Assembly: GCA_028716005.1 (NCBI GenBank)
Contig: JAQUQQ010000001.1
Coordinates: 1 to 61,799 of the forward strand
Length of the DNA: 61,799 bases
Direction: 5' to 3'
From: Candidatus Moraniibacteriota bacterium
GTDB lineage: Bacteria; Patescibacteriota; Minisyncoccia; Moranbacterales; UBA11712
Shown piece after piece: positions 10,176 through 56,413 of the stretch (its first letter is position 1; every line of letters starts with the position of its first letter). Under the pieces are notes generated by a model that saw only the letters and a program-made list of their open reading frames with translations, was not told the origin of the DNA and did no database searches. Made by a program: the position numbers and the translations under genes.

Positions 10176-10178
10176 AGC

Positions 10179-10258
10179 ACTCGCTAATCGGAGCGAATTA
10201 CAGCTAATTTGAGCGAATTCGCACTCATTCGCTTTCTATTAGCTCCACATTCGCGAGT
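10179..10258. repeat. ACTCGCGAAT-family palindromic element, compact copy A
   Basis: actcgctaat..gagcgaattcgcactc..cattcgcgagt. Arms made of CGAAT/CTAAT units about 10 nt apart. Lies between the stop at 10175 and the ATG at 10266. Confidence 0.75.
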
Positions 10259-10265
10259 CAATATT

Positions 10266-10682
10266 ATGCACGCCAATGTCCCCCAATTTATAGAAATGGA
10301 AGACAAGATCGCTTTCGGGCTCACCTCGAAGCAGCTTTTGTGGATGGGCGGAATGGCCGCCTGTCTCATCGTCCTCTACGGACTCGTTGACCGCCAGATT
10401 TTCCTCTTTGTCGCCATTTTTATCGTTATTATTTTCGGGACTTTTACTTTCTACCGCCCGCAGGGAATACCCTTTATATCTTTTTTCGGTTTTATGGTTC
10501 AGTATTTCACCAGTCCCAAAAAATATATCTGGAGAAGAGTATACGATACAAAGGAATCAGCCTTTTCCAAATCCCTCCAGGAAGCCCAAAAGAAAAGAAC
10601 GGGATCTGCGACGCAGATAAAAAGGATCCCCAGCCAAAGCCAGCTGAAAAGGATTGCATGGGTATTGGATACTAAAAAGTAA
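10266..10682 (+). CDS. PrgI/VirB3-like small membrane protein
   Basis: MHANVPQFIEMEDKIAFGLTSKQLLWMGGMAACLIVLYGLV.. followed by a second TM segment, just upstream of VirB4. This is typical of PrgI-family proteins in Gram-positive-type T4SS. The track ORF starts at 10209 inside the repeat; ATG 10266 is preferred. Confidence 0.55.
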   Translation: MHANVPQFIEMEDKIAFGLTSKQLLWMGGMAACLIVLYGLVDRQIFLFVAIFIVIIFGTFTFYRPQGIPFISFFGFMVQYFTSPKKYIWRRVYDTKESAFSKSLQEAQKKRTGSATQIKRIPSQSQLKRIAWVLDTKK

Positions 10683-10684
10683 TA

Positions 10685-10789
10685 ACTCGCGAATTAAAGA
10701 ACGAATGGAAAGCGAATGCGAACGAACTTGCTGACACGGAAAAAATCATTCGCTCTAATTCGTTTCTAATTCGCTCCTCATTCGTGAGT
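10685..10789. repeat. ACTCGCGAAT-family palindromic element, copy B (105 bp)
   Basis: actcgcgaattaaagaacgaatggaaagcgaatgcgaacgaa..loop..ttcgctctaattcgtttctaattcgctcctcattcgtgagt. Starts 2 nt after a stop and ends 7 nt before the next ATG. Confidence 0.85.
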
Positions 10790-10796
10790 TGCTATC

Positions 10797-11492: not shown

Positions 11493-11493
11493 T

Positions 11494-11598
11494 ACTCGCG
11501 AATTAAAGAACGAATGGAAAGCGAATGCGCACGAACTTGCTGACACGGAATAAATTGTTCGCTCTCATTTGTTTCTAATTCGCTCCTCATTCGTGAGT
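11494..11598. repeat. ACTCGCGAAT-family palindromic element, copy C (105 bp, near-identical to B)
   Basis: Differs from copy B at only a handful of positions. Starts 1 nt after the stop at 11492 and ends 4 nt before the ATG at 11603. Confidence 0.85.
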
Positions 11599-11602
11599 TA
11601 TT

Positions 11603-38778: not shown

Positions 38779-39428
38779 CTTGGTTTTATAATTTGGCGAA
38801 ATCTGAAATATTCAGAAAGGCGAAGTCCAGTCCATTTTCCCAAAAAGATATTTATCGGAATCGTGAGAAGGCTAATCCACGGATAGTTCAAAATCATCTT
38901 GATAAGCAGCGGCCAGCTGGCGATATAATATCCGATGATGGAAATGAAGAGGGTTTCCAGCGAAAGAATAACAGCGGCGCGGTTTCCCTTTTCAATTTGG
39001 ACGGCTATGAATTTTTCGACCAAAGTTATCATAATGAGAATCGGAAAAATGGAAACGCCCGCGAGGCCGGTCCGGTTCCAGGTTCCCCCGACAAAAAGGA
39101 GAAGCAGGATTGAAAATCCAACGACGGTGATCATTATGGCTACGCGGGGAAGATAAAGAAGCCTTGCTTTTTTGAGAAGATAGCGGGTGATTGTTCCCAC
39201 GACTATGACGGTCACAAAAATCGTGATGCCGTATTTGAGTTGGCTGGTGGCGAGCAGAGCGAAGGTGATGATGGCTGGCGTATAGATGCCAAAAGCTTTG
39301 ATCCCGATGACTTGACGAAAAAAAGCGATCATGGTCACGATAATCGGGAGGATCAAAACCAAGACCAGGGTGTCGAGCGGCACCCCGTTGGCAGCCGCAA
39401 GGGTGATGAACGGGTTTACGTTATCCAT
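38775..39428 (-). CDS. 7-TM membrane protein of the type associated with inactive-transglutaminase/ATP-grasp systems
   Basis: 217 aa, about 6-7 TM segments. ..FRQVIGIKAFGIYTPAIITFALL... Overlaps the downstream ATP-grasp gene by 4 nt. Confidence 0.45.
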   Translation of the reverse strand: MDNVNPFITLAAANGVPLDTLVLVLILPIIVTMIAFFRQVIGIKAFGIYTPAIITFALLATSQLKYGITIFVTVIVVGTITRYLLKKARLLYLPRVAIMITVVGFSILLLLFVGGTWNRTGLAGVSIFPILIMITLVEKFIAVQIEKGNRAAVILSLETLFISIIGYYIASWPLLIKMILNYPWISLLTIPINIFLGKWTGLRLSEYFRFRQIIKPR

Positions 39429-39466
39429 AGGGTTTTTCGCTTAAATTTAGGCAAAACGCTGATTAA

Positions 39467-39495
39467 AAAATACCGCTTTTTGGCGGTGTTGTCAA
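39467..39495 (-). promoter_or_regulatory. candidate sigma70 promoter for the 7TM/ATP-grasp operon
   Basis: The minus strand reads TTGACA (39495-39490), a 17-nt spacer, then TATTTT (39472-39467), about 40 nt upstream of the ATG at 39428. The spacer contains a small accgc/gcggt hairpin. Confidence 0.4.
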
Positions 39496-39501
39496 TAAAA
39501 A

Positions 39502-39606
39502 ACTCGCGAATTTGAGCAAATGCGAAGCGAATACGAGCGAATAATATTGTGTCTTGTTATTGAGTCCGCTCTGATTCGCGATTAATTCGCTCTCTCATTC
39601 GCGAGT
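39502..39606. repeat. ACTCGCGAAT-family palindromic element, copy D (105 bp)
   Basis: actcgcgaatttgagcaaatgcgaagcgaatacgagcgaat..loop..ctgattcgcgattaattcgctctctcattcgcgagt. The right arm overlaps the last ~16 codons of ruvC. Confidence 0.85.
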
Positions 39607-40069
39607 TGAGGTGGCATATCGCAATTGCTACCGCGTCTGCCGCGTCATCCGGTTTCGGAACGCATCGAAGCTTCAAAATATTTTTCACCATTTCCTGGAT
39701 CTGTTTTTTTTCGGCGCGGCCGTATCCGGTGAGGGCTTGTTTTACTTGAAGCGGGGTGTAGTTTTGAATTGGAATTTTATTTTTTTTTATTTCATACAAA
39801 ATTACTCCGCGGGCCTGGGCGACGGTGATAGCGGTTTTGAGATTCTTGAAAAAGAAAAGATCTTCGATAGCCGCCTCTTCGGGTTTGTATTTTTTGATGA
39901 GCGAGGAAATGTCTTTTCCAATCTCAACCAGTCGTTCCGCGTCGGAATTCAATTTGCTTGTGTTGACGCACCCGCAAGCAATGAGCCGCGGATTTTTGTT
40001 TATTTCCTCAACGACGGCCCAGCCAGTCGTCGCCGTGCCGGGGTCAATACCTAAAACTCGCGAATGCAT
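39557..40069 (-). CDS. ruvC: crossover junction endodeoxyribonuclease RuvC
   Basis: 170 aa. MHSRVLGIDPGTATTGWAVVE.. and ..ADAVAIAICHL... The first 4-5 codons and the last ~16 codons lie inside repeat copies E and D. Confidence 0.9.
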   Translation of the reverse strand: MHSRVLGIDPGTATTGWAVVEEINKNPRLIACGCVNTSKLNSDAERLVEIGKDISSLIKKYKPEEAAIEDLFFFKNLKTAITVAQARGVILYEIKKNKIPIQNYTPLQVKQALTGYGRAEKKQIQEMVKNILKLRCVPKPDDAADAVAIAICHLNSRMRERINRESERTQ

Positions 40070-40161
40070 GAGCTAATTAATCGCGAATCAGAGCGAACTT
40101 GCTAAGATGCGAATTGTATATTCGCTCTAATTAGCTTTAGGTTTGCTCTCTATTCGCGAGT
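40056..40161. repeat. ACTCGCGAAT-family palindromic element, copy E (106 bp)
   Basis: actcgcgaatgcatgagctaattaatcgcgaatcagagcgaac..loop..attcgctctaattagctttaggtttgctctctattcgcgagt. Fills the yebC-ruvC junction. Confidence 0.85.
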
Positions 40162-40163
40162 TG

Positions 40164-40880
40164 TTACAAGTTATCGTAAATTTCTTGAACGTCATCCAAT
40201 TCATCCAGTTTTTCCAGAAGTTTTTCATAATCGATTTTTGTTTCCGGGTCGATTTGAATCGGGGAGAGGGGCATGAACATAAGCCCGGCGTTGTCAATTT
40301 GGATGCCTTTTTTCTCAAGATTTTCCTTGATCTCTTTCAGATCACGCGGGTCGGTGAAAATTTGCAAGACCTCGCCTTGGAAAACGGTGTCCGCCGCTCC
40401 GGCGTCTATCGCCTGGAGTTCGATATCGTTGGCGTTTTCCTTGTTGGTTGTCGTGTATATCACGCCTATATTTTTGAATAGATATTGCAAGCTTCCGGCC
40501 GACGCCATTTTTCCGCCGGATTTTTCAATTATATTCCGAACTTCGCCGAGAGTCCGATTTTTGTTGTCGGTCGCGGTTTTCACGAGCATCGCGATGTTTC
40601 CCGGCGCCATAGCTTCGTAGACGACTTCCTCGATCGCGGCCGCGTCTTTCAGCTCGCCGGTTCCGCGCTTCACTGCCCGGTCGATATTTTCTTTTGGCAT
40701 GTTCACCGCGCGCGCCTGGTCAATGGCGAGACGCAAGCGAAAATTCATATCAGGGTTTCCTCCGCCCTCTTTCGCCGCGAGCGTCACCAGCCGCGCGACT
40801 TTGGTAAAAACGCCGGCGCGTTTGGCGTCTTGAGCCGCTTTTTTGTGTTTTATCCCCGCGAAATGTGAGTGTCCGGACAT
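40164..40880 (-). CDS. yebC: YebC/PmpR-family DNA-binding regulator
   Basis: 238 aa. MSGHSHFAGIKHKKAAQDAKRAGVFTK.. is the canonical YebC N-terminus. Confidence 0.9.
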   Translation of the reverse strand: MSGHSHFAGIKHKKAAQDAKRAGVFTKVARLVTLAAKEGGGNPDMNFRLRLAIDQARAVNMPKENIDRAVKRGTGELKDAAAIEEVVYEAMAPGNIAMLVKTATDNKNRTLGEVRNIIEKSGGKMASAGSLQYLFKNIGVIYTTTNKENANDIELQAIDAGAADTVFQGEVLQIFTDPRDLKEIKENLEKKGIQIDNAGLMFMPLSPIQIDPETKIDYEKLLEKLDELDDVQEIYDNL

Positions 40881-40947
40881 AATTGCATTTATTACCTTGA
40901 TTAGCGTAATATAATACTAGCCTCTTAAGACACATATTTCAAGGAAA

Positions 40948-41739
40948 ATGGGAGCTATTATTTCCGGAAAAGTTATTAAAGGCAAAGGAAAGGGGAAAAT
41001 ATTGGGTTTTCCGACGGTTAATATTGTGTTAAAGAAAAAAATTGAAAGCGGAGTTTATAAGGGAAAAGTTAAAATAACAACTCGCGAATGCGGAGCGAAT
41101 GGAAAGCGAATCGGAGCGAATGAGTGGTTGGCGGGGATTTTTATTAGTCCGGATGGGAAATCGCTTGAAGCGCATGTGGTTGGGTTTTCGGGAAATTTAT
41201 ACGGGGAAGAGATAGAGATAGAGATTGGAGAAAAAATTAGGGAAGCCATGAAGTTCGAAGATGATGAGGAATTAATAGAACAGATAAAAAAAGATATTAA
41301 AAGAATAACTCGCGAATATGGAGCTAATGAAAAGCGGATTGGAGCGAACAAAGGTTTGGTTTATCCGGAGTTAAGTTATAAGTTAGTCGGTTTGGCTATG
41401 GAAGTGCACAATGAACTTGGAAATATTTATCAGGAAAAGCATTATCAGAAATTGTTTGAGGAAAGACTAAAAAAGATCAAAATGCCTTATGAGAAAGAAA
41501 GACAAATGGTGATAAAAACCAAAGATAATTCTGAAATAGGAGAATTTTTTGCAGATTTTGTTATAGATAATAAAATTTTGCTGGAGTTCAAACGGGTGAA
41601 TTTTGTACATTACAATGATGTTAAACAAGTGCTAAGATATCTAGACGCGACAGGTTTAAAGCTCGGCATAATAATAAATTTCAAGTTGAATAAACTGCAG
41701 TATAAACGAATCGTGAATCCAAGAGTTCGCTCATATTAG
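40948..41739 (+). CDS. riboflavin kinase domain fused in frame to a GxxExxY-type (PD-(D/E)XK-like) protein
   Basis: aa 1-~125: GKVIKGKGKGKILGFPTVNI..LEAHVVGFSGNLYGEEIEIEIGEKIREAMKF (riboflavin kinase). aa ~137-263: ..ELSYKLVGLAMEVHNELGNIYQEKHYQ..GEFFADFVIDNKILLEFKRV..VLRYLDATGLKLGIIINF (GxxExxY family). Two repeat arms are translated (TTRECGANGKRIGANEW, ITREYGANEKRIGANKG). An in-frame TTG at 41356 could be an independent start. Confidence 0.6.
   Translation: MGAIISGKVIKGKGKGKILGFPTVNIVLKKKIESGVYKGKVKITTRECGANGKRIGANEWLAGIFISPDGKSLEAHVVGFSGNLYGEEIEIEIGEKIREAMKFEDDEELIEQIKKDIKRITREYGANEKRIGANKGLVYPELSYKLVGLAMEVHNELGNIYQEKHYQKLFEERLKKIKMPYEKERQMVIKTKDNSEIGEFFADFVIDNKILLEFKRVNFVHYNDVKQVLRYLDATGLKLGIIINFKLNKLQYKRIVNPRVRSY
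41080..41121. repeat. solo left arm of the ACTCGCGAAT element (copy F), in frame inside the riboflavin kinase domain
   Basis: actcgcgaatgcggagcgaatggaaagcgaatcggagcgaat. Four CGAAT units spaced 11, 11 and 10 nt. No matching right arm nearby. Confidence 0.75.
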
Positions 41740-41764
41740 CTATAATTTGCTCAAATTCGCGAGT
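41308..41764. mobile_element. composite ACTCGCGAAT element (copy G) whose loop carries the GxxExxY coding segment
   Basis: Left arm 41308-41349 (actcgcgaatatggagctaatgaaaagcggattggagcgaac). Right arm 41725-41764 (gttcgctcatattagctataatttgctcaaattcgcgagt). The GxxExxY-like coding sequence lies between them. Mobility is inferred, not shown. Confidence 0.5.
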
Positions 41765-41769
41765 TGATT

Positions 41770-42372
41770 ATGTTCACAGGAATAATCAAAAAAGTTTCGA
41801 GAGTTGAAAACGTTTTCCAAAAAAATGGAAGTTTTTTTGTTGAGATAAAAATTCCGAAGGGATGGAAAATTAAACTCGGAGAAAGTATTTCGGTGAATGG
41901 GGTTTGCTCGACGGCTAAAAAAGTTAGTAAAAATAATTTTACGGTTGAATATATGCCCGAAACGGTCAAAAAAACGACCGTTGGAAATTTTGCGAAAGGC
42001 AGGGAAGTAAATCTCGAGCGGAGTTTGCGCCTCGGAGATCCCATTGACGGGCACATTGTGCAGGGGCACGTGGATACGACCGGAAAAATAATCGGAGTCG
42101 ATAAAGTAAAAAGTTCTAAAGTTTTGAAAGTAGAAGTTCCGAAAGAGTTTATGAAATTTCTGGCGCCGAAGGGGTCGGTTTCTATCGATGGGACAAGTCT
42201 CACCATAGTTGACGCGAAAAAAGATTGGTTTTCTGTATCGCTTGTGAGCTATACGCTCGAAAATACAAACCTTGGAAAAATAAAAGTGGGAGAAAAAGTG
42301 AACATTGAAGTTGACGCGCTGGCGAAATATATTTTTAACATATTAAAATCGAACGGTTATGTTAAACGCTAA
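41770..42372 (+). CDS. ribE: riboflavin synthase (alpha chain)
   Basis: Canonical MFTGII start (ATG 41770; the track start at 41764 is a TTG inside the repeat terminus). ..SISVNGVCSTA.., ..GHIVQGHVD.. and ..GSVSIDGTSLT... Confidence 0.9.
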   Translation: MFTGIIKKVSRVENVFQKNGSFFVEIKIPKGWKIKLGESISVNGVCSTAKKVSKNNFTVEYMPETVKKTTVGNFAKGREVNLERSLRLGDPIDGHIVQGHVDTTGKIIGVDKVKSSKVLKVEVPKEFMKFLAPKGSVSIDGTSLTIVDAKKDWFSVSLVSYTLENTNLGKIKVGEKVNIEVDALAKYIFNILKSNGYVKR

Positions 42373-42820
42373 AAAAGGTAAAGTAAAAAAAATAGACGGG
42401 TCGAAACTGAAGATTGGAATCGTGGTTTCACAGTTCAATGACAACATCACCGGTCCGATGCTTGAAGGCGCGCTCGAAACACTCAAAGAAAACCAAGTCA
42501 AAGAAGAAAATATTGAAATAGTCTGGGTACCGGGTTCATTTGAGATTCCACTGGCTTGTCAAAAATTGGCCGAGACGAAAAAATACGACGCGCTGGTCGC
42601 CATTGGCTGCGTGATCAAAGGAGAAACTGATCATTACTATTACATCTGCAATGAAGTTTCGCGGGGAGTGATGGATGTGATGCTGGAATATAATCTTCCG
42701 ATCGGATTCGGGGTGCTCACCTGCAATAACTTGAAACAGGCCCAGGTCCGCTCCCGCGGGCGTGAAAACAAAGGCCGCGAAGCGGCTGTTGCGGCGCTCG
42801 CGATGGCCGACGTAAAGTAA
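42359..42820 (+). CDS. ribH: 6,7-dimethyl-8-ribityllumazine synthase
   Basis: 153 aa. LKIGIVVSQFN, VPGSFEIP, GCVIKGETDHYYYI. Confidence 0.9.
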   Translation: MLNAKKGKVKKIDGSKLKIGIVVSQFNDNITGPMLEGALETLKENQVKEENIEIVWVPGSFEIPLACQKLAETKKYDALVAIGCVIKGETDHYYYICNEVSRGVMDVMLEYNLPIGFGVLTCNNLKQAQVRSRGRENKGREAAVAALAMADVK

Positions 42821-55366: not shown

Positions 55367-56365
55367 ATGTATACAAAAACATTCAAAGAAATATCAAAAA
55401 AAGATGTCGGGATCGCTGGTGGAAAGGGGGCGTCTCTCGGCGAAATGTCTGGGTCTGGTATTCCCGTGCCGCCGGGATTTGTTATCACAATCGATGCTTT
55501 TGACCGGTTTCTCGAAGAAACCGATCTCGGAGTCGATATTGTTTCAATCCTCAAAAATATAAACTATAAAGATATGAGCTCGGTGGACAAAGCGTCGCAT
55601 GAGATCCGCGATATGATCCACGATGTTCCGATGCCGAAAGACCTCGCGAAATTATTTTTAGGAGAATTCAAGAAACTCAAGGCGCCATACGTCGCAGTCC
55701 GCAGCAGCGCAACGGCCGAAGACTCGGCGGTGGCTTCCTGGGCGGGAGAACTGGAAACTTATCTCAACACTACGGGGAAAAAGATTTTTGAAAACATCAA
55801 AAAATGCTGGTCCTCGCTTTTCACCCAGCGAGCGCTCTTTTATGCCTTTGAAAAGCAAGTGTTCACGAAAAAACATCAGCAGAAAATCAGAGCTGGAACG
55901 TCCAAAATCAAAGATTCTTACCCGGTGAGCGTGGCGGTGGTCGTTCAAAAAATGGTGCAGTCGGACATTTCGGGGATTTGTTTCACCGTCCATCCAGTGA
56001 CGGAAAACAAAAAACAAATGGTGATTGAAGCCGGGTATGGGCTTGGGGAGGCAATTGTTTCCGGACAGGTTACACCCGACACGTATGTTGTCGATAAACA
56101 AGATTTCTCGATTGCGGACATCAATTTCTCTGAGCAAACAAGAATGATTGTGAAAAAGAAAGGCGAGGGCGTGGAGTGGAAACCGGTGCCGAAGAAGACG
56201 CAAAATCGGCAAAAATTGACCGGCAAGCAGATTGTCGAGTTGGCCAAGCTTTGCGACAGAATTGAAAAACATTACAAAAAACCTCAAGACATCGAATGGG
56301 CGCTTGAGAAAGGGAAATTCTATATAACGCAGTCGCGGCCGATAACTACTCTCACTCGCGAATAA
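55367..56365 (+). CDS. stand-alone PPDK_N-type ATP-grasp (nucleotide-binding) domain of PEP synthase/pyruvate phosphate dikinase/rifampin phosphotransferase-like enzymes
   Basis: 332 aa. GIAGGKGASLGEM..GIPVPPGFVIT, VAVRSSATAEDS, VAVVVQKMVQSDISGICFTVHP, EAGYGLGEAIVSGQVTPD, DIEWALEKGKFYITQSRPIT. Ends at the domain boundary; the last codons and the stop lie in repeat copy H. Confidence 0.85.
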   Translation: MYTKTFKEISKKDVGIAGGKGASLGEMSGSGIPVPPGFVITIDAFDRFLEETDLGVDIVSILKNINYKDMSSVDKASHEIRDMIHDVPMPKDLAKLFLGEFKKLKAPYVAVRSSATAEDSAVASWAGELETYLNTTGKKIFENIKKCWSSLFTQRALFYAFEKQVFTKKHQQKIRAGTSKIKDSYPVSVAVVVQKMVQSDISGICFTVHPVTENKKQMVIEAGYGLGEAIVSGQVTPDTYVVDKQDFSIADINFSEQTRMIVKKKGEGVEWKPVPKKTQNRQKLTGKQIVELAKLCDRIEKHYKKPQDIEWALEKGKFYITQSRPITTLTRE

Positions 56366-56395
56366 TGAGCAAATGACGAGCGAATCAGAGCGAAT
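56354..56395. repeat. solo left arm of the ACTCGCGAAT element (copy H)
   Basis: actcgcgaataatgagcaaatgacgagcgaatcagagcgaat. Supplies ..TRE and the TAA stop of the ATP-grasp gene. No right arm follows. Confidence 0.75.
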
Positions 56396-56413
56396 GTTCC
56401 GTTAGACAGCAGT

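Follow-up and report, generated by a model that had tools for sequence, protein, structure and literature searches.

How do copies of one palindromic repeat come to lie within the reading frames of unrelated housekeeping genes, and what kind of element are they? The question is raised by a 61,799 nt stretch of DNA from Candidatus Moraniibacteriota bacterium (GenBank assembly GCA_028716005.1, contig JAQUQQ010000001.1, positions 1 to 61,799; hereafter the window), in which arms of the repeat overlap the open reading frames (ORFs) for RuvC, a riboflavin kinase (RK) and a stand-alone PPDK_N protein. The genome (G000) comprises 1.06 Mb in 116 contigs (given here with the prefix C), has 45% GC and is 86% complete. 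We consider it likely that the palindromes are gene-less copies of a cassette whose full form has been retained only once, between RK and ribE, and that the family persists in the manner of the in-gene repeats known as Rickettsia palindromic elements (RPEs).

The 10-mer ACTCGCGAAT occurs 11 times in the window, where 0.1 copies are expected. Alignment of the copies gave an arm of about 44 nt, in which AACTCGCGAAT precedes three (G/A)AGCGAAT units spaced about 11 bp apart. When the whole G000 genome was searched with an arm profile (nhmmer, E <= 0.01), 49 arms were found, forming 20 inverted pairs and leaving nine solo arms. The paired copies span 82–108 bp, apart from a single pair of 459 bp, and their inverted arms of about 44 nt end in ACTCGCGAAT and ATTCGCGAGT. 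Most paired copies occupy the stop-to-start gap between neighboring genes, and the next start codon is often only 0–8 nt past the terminus. RNA folding of paired copies gave segmented stems of −32 to −41 kcal/mol (z −3.5 to −5.8), in which pairing is confined to the GCGAAT units and the spacers form internal loops. Rfam returned no matches within 39000–42500, and the flanks of the 20 paired copies showed no consistent direct repeat of the kind expected for a target-site duplication.

The single long pair is a gene-bearing cassette (41307–41765, forward strand, 459 bp), with a left arm at 41307–41350, a GxxExxY body and an inverted right arm at 41724–41765, which also encodes the last residues of the GxxExxY protein (VRSY) and its stop codon. 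It lies between the 3′ end of RK and the ATG of ribE (riboflavin synthase; 41770–42372, forward strand, Pfam Lum_binding 1.1e-46), regions that overlap in relatives, and the ribE ATG is found 5 nt past the right arm terminus. The RK frame continues through the left arm to give an ORF of 263 aa (40948–41739, forward strand) that consists of RK (residues 1–118), an arm-coded linker (119–136) and a GxxExxY/PDDEXK_3 domain (137–263); the corresponding Pfam matches are Flavokinase (2.1e-25, residues 5–121) and PDDEXK_3 (7.1e-25, residues 141–255). The PF13366 match scored 88.1 bits against a cut-off of 22 for the ORF, and 90.1 bits in the genome scan. Foldseek matched the C-terminal domain to PD-(D/E)XK nucleases, including Cas4 SSO0001, LHK-Exo, lambda exonuclease and 3ijm, and residues of the D...ExK type are present by inspection (DFVIDNKILLEFK). 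Both tblastn and the PF13366 scan indicate that this is the only GxxExxY gene of the 86%-complete genome, and the RK-fused copy is therefore the sole cargo-bearing member of the repeat family. A preliminary description of the window, made from the sequence, had identified the linker arm and the absence of a stop codon between RK and GxxExxY, and this holds, except that the arm is not solo, its partner being the right arm of the cassette. The gene fusion proposed there (ribF-like::GxxExxY) also stands as a conserved open frame in four lineages, but it joins a host gene to the cargo of an element and not two host genes. The lineages are G000, its congener G001, and the metagenomic proteins P0001 and P0002, and the frame stays open down to 56% RK identity.

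A second arm of the family, in this case a solo one, lies inside the RK gene itself (41079–41122, forward strand), where it is read in frame as TTRECGANGKRIGANEW, or TTRECGANGKRIGAN(EW), as the preliminary description had noted. It takes the place of the tip of a beta-hairpin loop, with eight residues in seven orthologs compared to KITTRECGANGKRIGANEWL in G000, so that the insertion or replacement amounts to a net gain of 12 aa over these orthologs. The seven, one of them from the same-genus genome G002, are 109–122 aa long and end where the G000 linker starts, and in four of them the RK stop codon overlaps the ribE ATG. Alignment shows that both the loop insert and the GxxExxY part are absent from all seven. 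The loop arm is shared with G001, which carries it together with the open fusion and no stop codon, while P0001 and P0002 have the same arm-coded linker fusion without the loop arm, and the two RK insertions are therefore separate events. Inspection shows both RK motifs, GFPTxN and LEAH...LYG, to be preserved. The 263 aa ORF was modeled with AlphaFold2 (17-sequence alignment, mean predicted local distance difference test score, pLDDT, of 79); the loop arm falls between the confident strands 35–43 and 59–66, with pLDDT <50 at residues 48–56, and the linker (residues 120–135) is likewise below 50, next to a confident nuclease domain with values of 88–97. The RK part of the model was matched by Foldseek to RK structures, and the loop arm aligns with a loop in the RFK module of C. 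ammoniagenes that is long and variable and that we take to be the mobile flap I loop.

Assembly support for this arrangement was assessed at the level of contigs, not reads. In three landfill samples, Logan contigs run across both RK arms and show 0 differences there, which rules out an assembly error as the source of the fusion ORF. A G001-like groundwater contig has the same RK/cassette layout. On that contig, about 7.8 kb separate yebC from RK, compared to 67 bp in G000 (window 40882–41071).

The cassette and its surroundings differ in how far they have diverged from G001. Over the cassette (41307–41765), 445/459 positions are identical (96.9%). In RK and ribE, the host genes that flank it, the figure is 697/918 (75.9%; Fisher p 1.6e-27 for the difference), and identity changes sharply at the arm termini. 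The solo RK arm (41079–41122) is identical at 42/44 positions (95.5%). Synonymous divergence (dS) from G001 is 0.07 for the cargo and 1.05 for RK, and at an equal RK distance (69% aa identity) the identity of the cargo amounts to 96% with G001 and 90% with P0001. We read these sequence comparisons as suggesting a cassette history that is separate from, and younger than, that of the host, through spread or exchange into the same site.

Gene-less copies contribute to both ends of ruvC (39557–40069, minus strand, 170 aa; Pfam RuvC 2.3e-50, residues 5–153). Element E (40055–40162) is a complete palindrome of 108 bp (−39.5 kcal/mol, z −5.6) that fills the junction between the yebC stop and the ruvC start and supplies the ruvC ATG. 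The ATG (40067–40069) and the first five codons (MHSRV) lie within its terminus, in agreement with the preliminary description, and the TGCATTCGCGAGTT end of the element recurs in copies on C19 and C70. RuvC orthologs start with MKI, MNLRI or MHLRI, and those with MHLRI or MNLRI have no element; since the G000 N-terminus is of the same length as these, element E has brought no net gain. Element D (39501–39607), also a complete gene-less palindrome (107 bp, −41.5 kcal/mol, z −5.8), overlaps the other end of the gene. Its right arm (39563–39607) encodes the RuvC tail MRERINRESERT (13 residues), and the last codon (Q) and the stop sit in its central loop. Of the approximately 16 tail residues previously attributed to the arm, those of MRERINRESERT are confirmed, but the three residues NSR are native and the final Q comes from the loop. 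The motif CH(L/I)NSR is present in 12/12 RuvC orthologs while the NSR codons vary synonymously (AAC TCG CGA, AAT TCA CGT, AAC AGT CGT, AAT TCC AGA and others, with AGG also used), showing that NSR belongs to RuvC and coincides with the element terminus AACTCGCGA. In other genera, the RuvC tail is short and basic, and its codons come from unique sequence or from hairpins that belong to other repeat families. Compared to G001, element D is 93.5% identical and element E 57%, with ruvC and yebC at 82–84%; element E has thus been remodeled relative to G001, and the arms as such are therefore not uniformly constrained. Element D is followed on the minus strand by a T-run and a conserved promoter. 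The promoter-like sequence, TTGACA-17-TATTTT with a small embedded hairpin, is located downstream of ruvC (39467–39495, minus strand) and is conserved in several genera, ahead of a 7TM/ATP-grasp operon.

The third in-gene case in the window is the stand-alone PPDK_N gene (55367–56365), which ends in solo arm H (56354–56396, forward strand). The first 12 nt of the arm, ACT CGC GAA TAA (56354–56365), provide TRE and the stop codon, as had been described. The further suggestion that such an insertion had truncated or split a larger gene is not upheld, since in five further genomes the orthologs are also stand-alone and end 1–5 residues after RPITTL; no arm is found at the ends in G008 (G*) and G004 (GT*), and in the other genomes hairpins unrelated to it occur there. 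Fission of virB4 was likewise considered and rejected. The VirB4-N-like gene is flanked by two complete elements of 107 bp, one upstream of it (10684–10790) and one between it and virB4 (11493–11599), and it is a separate ORF of 236–248 aa in five relatives from four genera. Comparison of the PPDK_N and VirB4-N-like genes with those of relatives thus uncovered no case of fission caused by the element. A short complete element of 82 bp (10178–10259) overlaps the 5′ end of the ORF at 10209–10682.

Further in-frame copies are found elsewhere in the genome. Compared to orthologs, an arm in IleRS (C65) adds a net 6 aa and one in the 3-methyladenine glycosylase (C7) a net 3 aa, and a MiaB-like gene (C30) contains a complete 84 bp element in frame, which is also present in G007. 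ValRS (C14) is less clear: an in-frame arm lies in a hypervariable loop that is longer than in G001, G003 and G008, but an arm-like segment is also seen at this site in G002, and in G007 the insert there is longer. A second partial terminus, ACGCGAATTAAAT, precedes the ValRS arm (C14 3664–3720); the arm-like segment of G002 (RANEKRIGTN) is differently phased, and none is seen in G001. The in-gene solo arms give net gains of 3–12 aa from an arm of 14–15 codons, and therefore replace host loop sequence. The earlier proposal that the element is placed on gene boundaries or across them, and that genes tolerate it as part of their coding sequence, is borne out by the cases in the window and by the ortholog alignments of IleRS, the MiaB-like protein and the glycosylase. 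An arm match in ThrRS (C30 6551–6596) was rejected as an insertion, being length-neutral, with IRSxIRES conserved in five relatives. The native ThrRS sequence, NSLLLAKNIRSIIRES, scores 31.8 bits against the arm profile, which calls for caution in counting repeats. Also rejected was TCGCGA as a target or duplicated site, which had been suggested by the RuvC NSR codons (AAYTCGCGN) and the MiaB NS codons, because the ancestral RK loop and RK-ribE sites lack the motif.

Whole GxxExxY cassettes also occur in frame inside host genes of relatives, namely the sole gatB of G004 (L006 796–2781) and recG of G037 (L036). Their borders are arm-coded, low-complexity peptides, and the cargo is read through on both sides. 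Metagenomic GatB sequences show two insertion sites, and the cassette of the metagenomic protein P0005 is at a different gatB site from that of G004. The 3′ end of RK is occupied in four lineages, and related cassettes are present at two different gatB sites. In other genera, different hairpin or heptamer-array families are found at the same junctions and loops, that is, at the 3′ ends of ruvC (L016, L015 and L019) and PPDK_N (L027 and L028), in the MiaB loop (L054 and L055) and at the RK-ribE junction (L008). These shared positions could be either recurrent landing sites or the outcome of in-place repeat turnover.

If arms are read as protein in so many genes, are they built to be? They are read in three forward frames (NSR.., TRE.. 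and LAN..) and in reverse (as for MHSRV), and the preliminary description had treated the lack of a stop codon as a property of the arm. Taking the family as a whole, the frame is open in 45% of arm-by-frame combinations, compared to 47% for shuffled arms and 65% for genomic 43-mers drawn at random, and a full set of six open frames is seen in the RK loop copy (41079–41122) alone. An arm that is intrinsically free of stops in six frames was rejected on this basis, as the statement is true just of the unit core and of that one copy. Since the family is not intrinsically stop-free, the in-gene copies are the survivors of selection, and their open frames reflect survivorship.

In the reading that we favor, the full form of the cassette would be two inverted arms around a gene for a GxxExxY PD-(D/E)XK nuclease-like protein, surviving once in this genome, and the 82–108 bp palindromes would be its gene-less copies. 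Copies lie in stop-to-start junctions and in variable protein loops, and an ORF that overlaps one continues through it without a break. In these places the arm DNA accounts for the N-terminus of RuvC with its start codon, for the C-terminal tails and stops of RuvC and PPDK_N, for internal loop segments in RK, IleRS, the MiaB-like protein, the glycosylase and, less clearly, ValRS, and for a linker of 18 codons, predicted to be disordered, between RK and the cargo. Copies within genes would be those left by purifying selection, and the cassette would spread or persist as a selfish unit, with a nuclease that probably acts on the phased GCGAAT arrays.

Several observations weigh against this scheme. 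Neither a target-site duplication nor an empty-site/filled-site pair with clean borders was found, and the replacement of host sequence by solo arms is unusual for transposition. The gene-less copies diverge unevenly between congeners, as seen for elements D and E, and the high identity of the cassette could reflect constraint at the DNA level instead of recent spread. The ThrRS look-alike means that some profile matches overstate the arm count, and the occurrence of different repeat families at the same junctions may point to a positional function and not to mobility. Translation of the arms and of the fusion would, moreover, follow from open frames only.

A rival that we consider rather unlikely is that the hairpins serve as functional RNA or DNA structures conserved in position, whether terminators, mRNA stabilizers, sites of processing or arrays to which a host protein binds, their sequence homogenized within each genome, so that overlap with ORFs would be a side effect of gene packing and would have nothing to do with mobility. 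The filling of stop-to-start junctions, the stable folds (z −3.5 to −5.8), the T-run and conserved promoter after element D, the restriction of pairing to GCGAAT units that recur at an 11 bp period, and the presence of other families at the ruvC and PPDK_N 3′ ends, MiaB loop and RK-ribE junction of other genera are all in keeping with it. What makes it improbable as a full account is that the solo arms in RK, IleRS, ValRS and the glycosylase are located mid-gene and are unable to form a hairpin, that the RK loop insert and cassette are missing from same-genus G002 and six other relatives, that the history of the cassette differs from that of its flanks, and that a cargo nuclease gene goes with the family. 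For the junction copies, a structural or regulatory role linked to their position is plausible and compatible with mobility. Far less probable is a role for the Y1 transposases of the genome, with the repeats being mobilized like repetitive extragenic palindromic (REP) sequences by REP-associated tyrosine transposases (RAYTs), and of the alternatives weighed here we rate it lowest. G000 does have six Y1_Tnp-like matches, five of them above the Pfam cut-off, but no GCGAAT arm shares a contig with any of them. Five of the six are accompanied by palindromes of about 20–24 nt that are their own and unrelated to the arms; the sixth (C42) runs into an unresolved stretch. These five genes (214–239 aa; C34 2655–3353, C102 366–1010, C32 6531–7208, C60 3107–3778 and C35 3871–4590) are each bracketed on both sides by a palindrome that differs from gene to gene.

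Two other explanations concern how the fusion ORF is expressed. The only canonical in-frame start candidate between the end of RK and the GxxExxY domain is a TTG (41356–41358, Leu137), with a GGAG 11 nt upstream of it, inside the left arm. The cargo has no ATG of its own in this lineage and is most likely made either as a C-terminal RK fusion or from this TTG. If the GGAG served as a Shine-Dalgarno sequence, GxxExxY could be translated separately, and the open linker would be incidental. The resulting product of 127 aa is of canonical family size, and stand-alone relatives are 130–155 aa long. We view separate translation as a tentative option, somewhat doubtful for the following reasons: the stand-alone relatives have their own ATG, 8–12 codons before YPELSY, while the four RK-linked forms have no ATG in the linker; four lineages, with RK identity as low as 56%, have kept the frame open; a spacing of 11 nt is long for a Shine-Dalgarno sequence; and the GatB and RecG cargo is read through on both sides. 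Fusion and TTG initiation are both possible. That the arm segments are removed, either by excision and religation of the kind involving RNase III at intervening sequences or by protein splicing, is very unlikely. Paired arms would indeed juxtapose the flanks in a long stem, but solo arms have no partner, and all in-gene copies keep the frame without stop codons, which would not be needed if they were excised. Pfam detects Flavokinase and PDDEXK_3 in the fusion ORF and no Hint/intein domain, and we know of no mRNA religation pathway in bacteria for such hairpins.

RPEs (Ogata et al., as covered in PMC10969869) are repeats of about 100–150 bp that occur in frame in unrelated genes. The behavior of the G000 family matches that of RPEs with the addition of a nuclease-bearing master copy. 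Like RPEs, it consists of palindromic repeats in a reduced genome (here 20 pairs, the gene-less ones of 82–108 bp, and nine solo arms), with recurrent in-frame copies in unrelated housekeeping genes (RK, IleRS, the MiaB-like gene, the glycosylase and, less clearly, ValRS), and the extra peptide appears to be tolerated at fold-compatible positions. Unlike RPEs, the arms are made of phased 6 nt units, and in place of a single conserved peptide in a fixed frame they are read in three forward frames and in reverse. Other differences are that many copies are solo arms that replace host loops, that most copies lie at gene junctions, that there is a cargo-bearing PD-(D/E)XK master copy, itself fused to a host enzyme, and that the host is a candidate-phyla bacterium. 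Bacterial MITEs, or miniature inverted-repeat transposable elements, that make in-frame fusions include ERIC, BOX, Correia and Anabaena MITEs (PMC10969869). The G000 elements resemble these in being short, multi-copy and non-autonomous, with terminal inverted repeats and no transposase inside, and in being able to supply ORF ends, fusions and terminator-like hairpins; they differ in showing no target-site duplication in the flanks of the 20 paired copies and in having no transposase-encoding parent, the sole gene-bearing copy carrying PF13366. Unlike REP sequences and bacterial interspersed mosaic elements (BIMEs) with their RAYTs, they do not flank the Y1_Tnp-like genes.

The cassette shares with free-standing or intein-borne homing endonuclease genes a small nuclease gene at a recurrent site (the RK 3′ end, in four lineages), an in-frame position in the essential genes gatB and recG of relatives, and a cargo history decoupled from that of the host gene. 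It differs in lacking an intron and, by Pfam, a Hint/splicing domain, in that the insert apparently stays in the host protein, in having no co-conversion tracts at its borders, and in occupying two gatB sites. The inverted-arm stem around a small ORF from a family of unassigned role also recalls ORF-bearing 23S rRNA intervening sequences; in contrast to these, the elements here lie in and between protein genes, appear to be read as protein and have no rRNA context. In the literature, GxxExxY was found as an annotation label, and we found no account of its function or of in-frame palindromic repeats in candidate phyla. What the present analysis adds is the proof of insertion from orthologs, the corrections to the preliminary description, a cassette history decoupled from that of the host, and the finding of survivorship. 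It is conceivable, though we hold it with little confidence, that the GxxExxY cassette represents a new kind of selfish element that dwells in ORFs without an intron or intein. Such an element would lack a promoter and, in this lineage, also a start codon, would be expressed inside host proteins (as the RK fusion, or in mid-GatB and mid-RecG), would use its arms both as nuclease sites and as disordered linker adaptors, and would move, or be exchanged, between related strains into the same site.

In a genome of about 1 Mb, repeat DNA is reshaping the termini and surface loops of core enzymes, including RuvC, RK, a MiaB-like protein and probably tRNA synthetases, a process so far documented mainly in Rickettsia. 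For the annotation of candidate phyla, this means that gene ends, 'fusion proteins' and low-complexity inserts may be repeat-derived, and that a repeat lying beside an apparent domain fission is not necessarily its cause. GxxExxY, a very common and unstudied family, gains a testable context as the cargo carried by a hairpin cassette whose GCGAAT arrays are phased.

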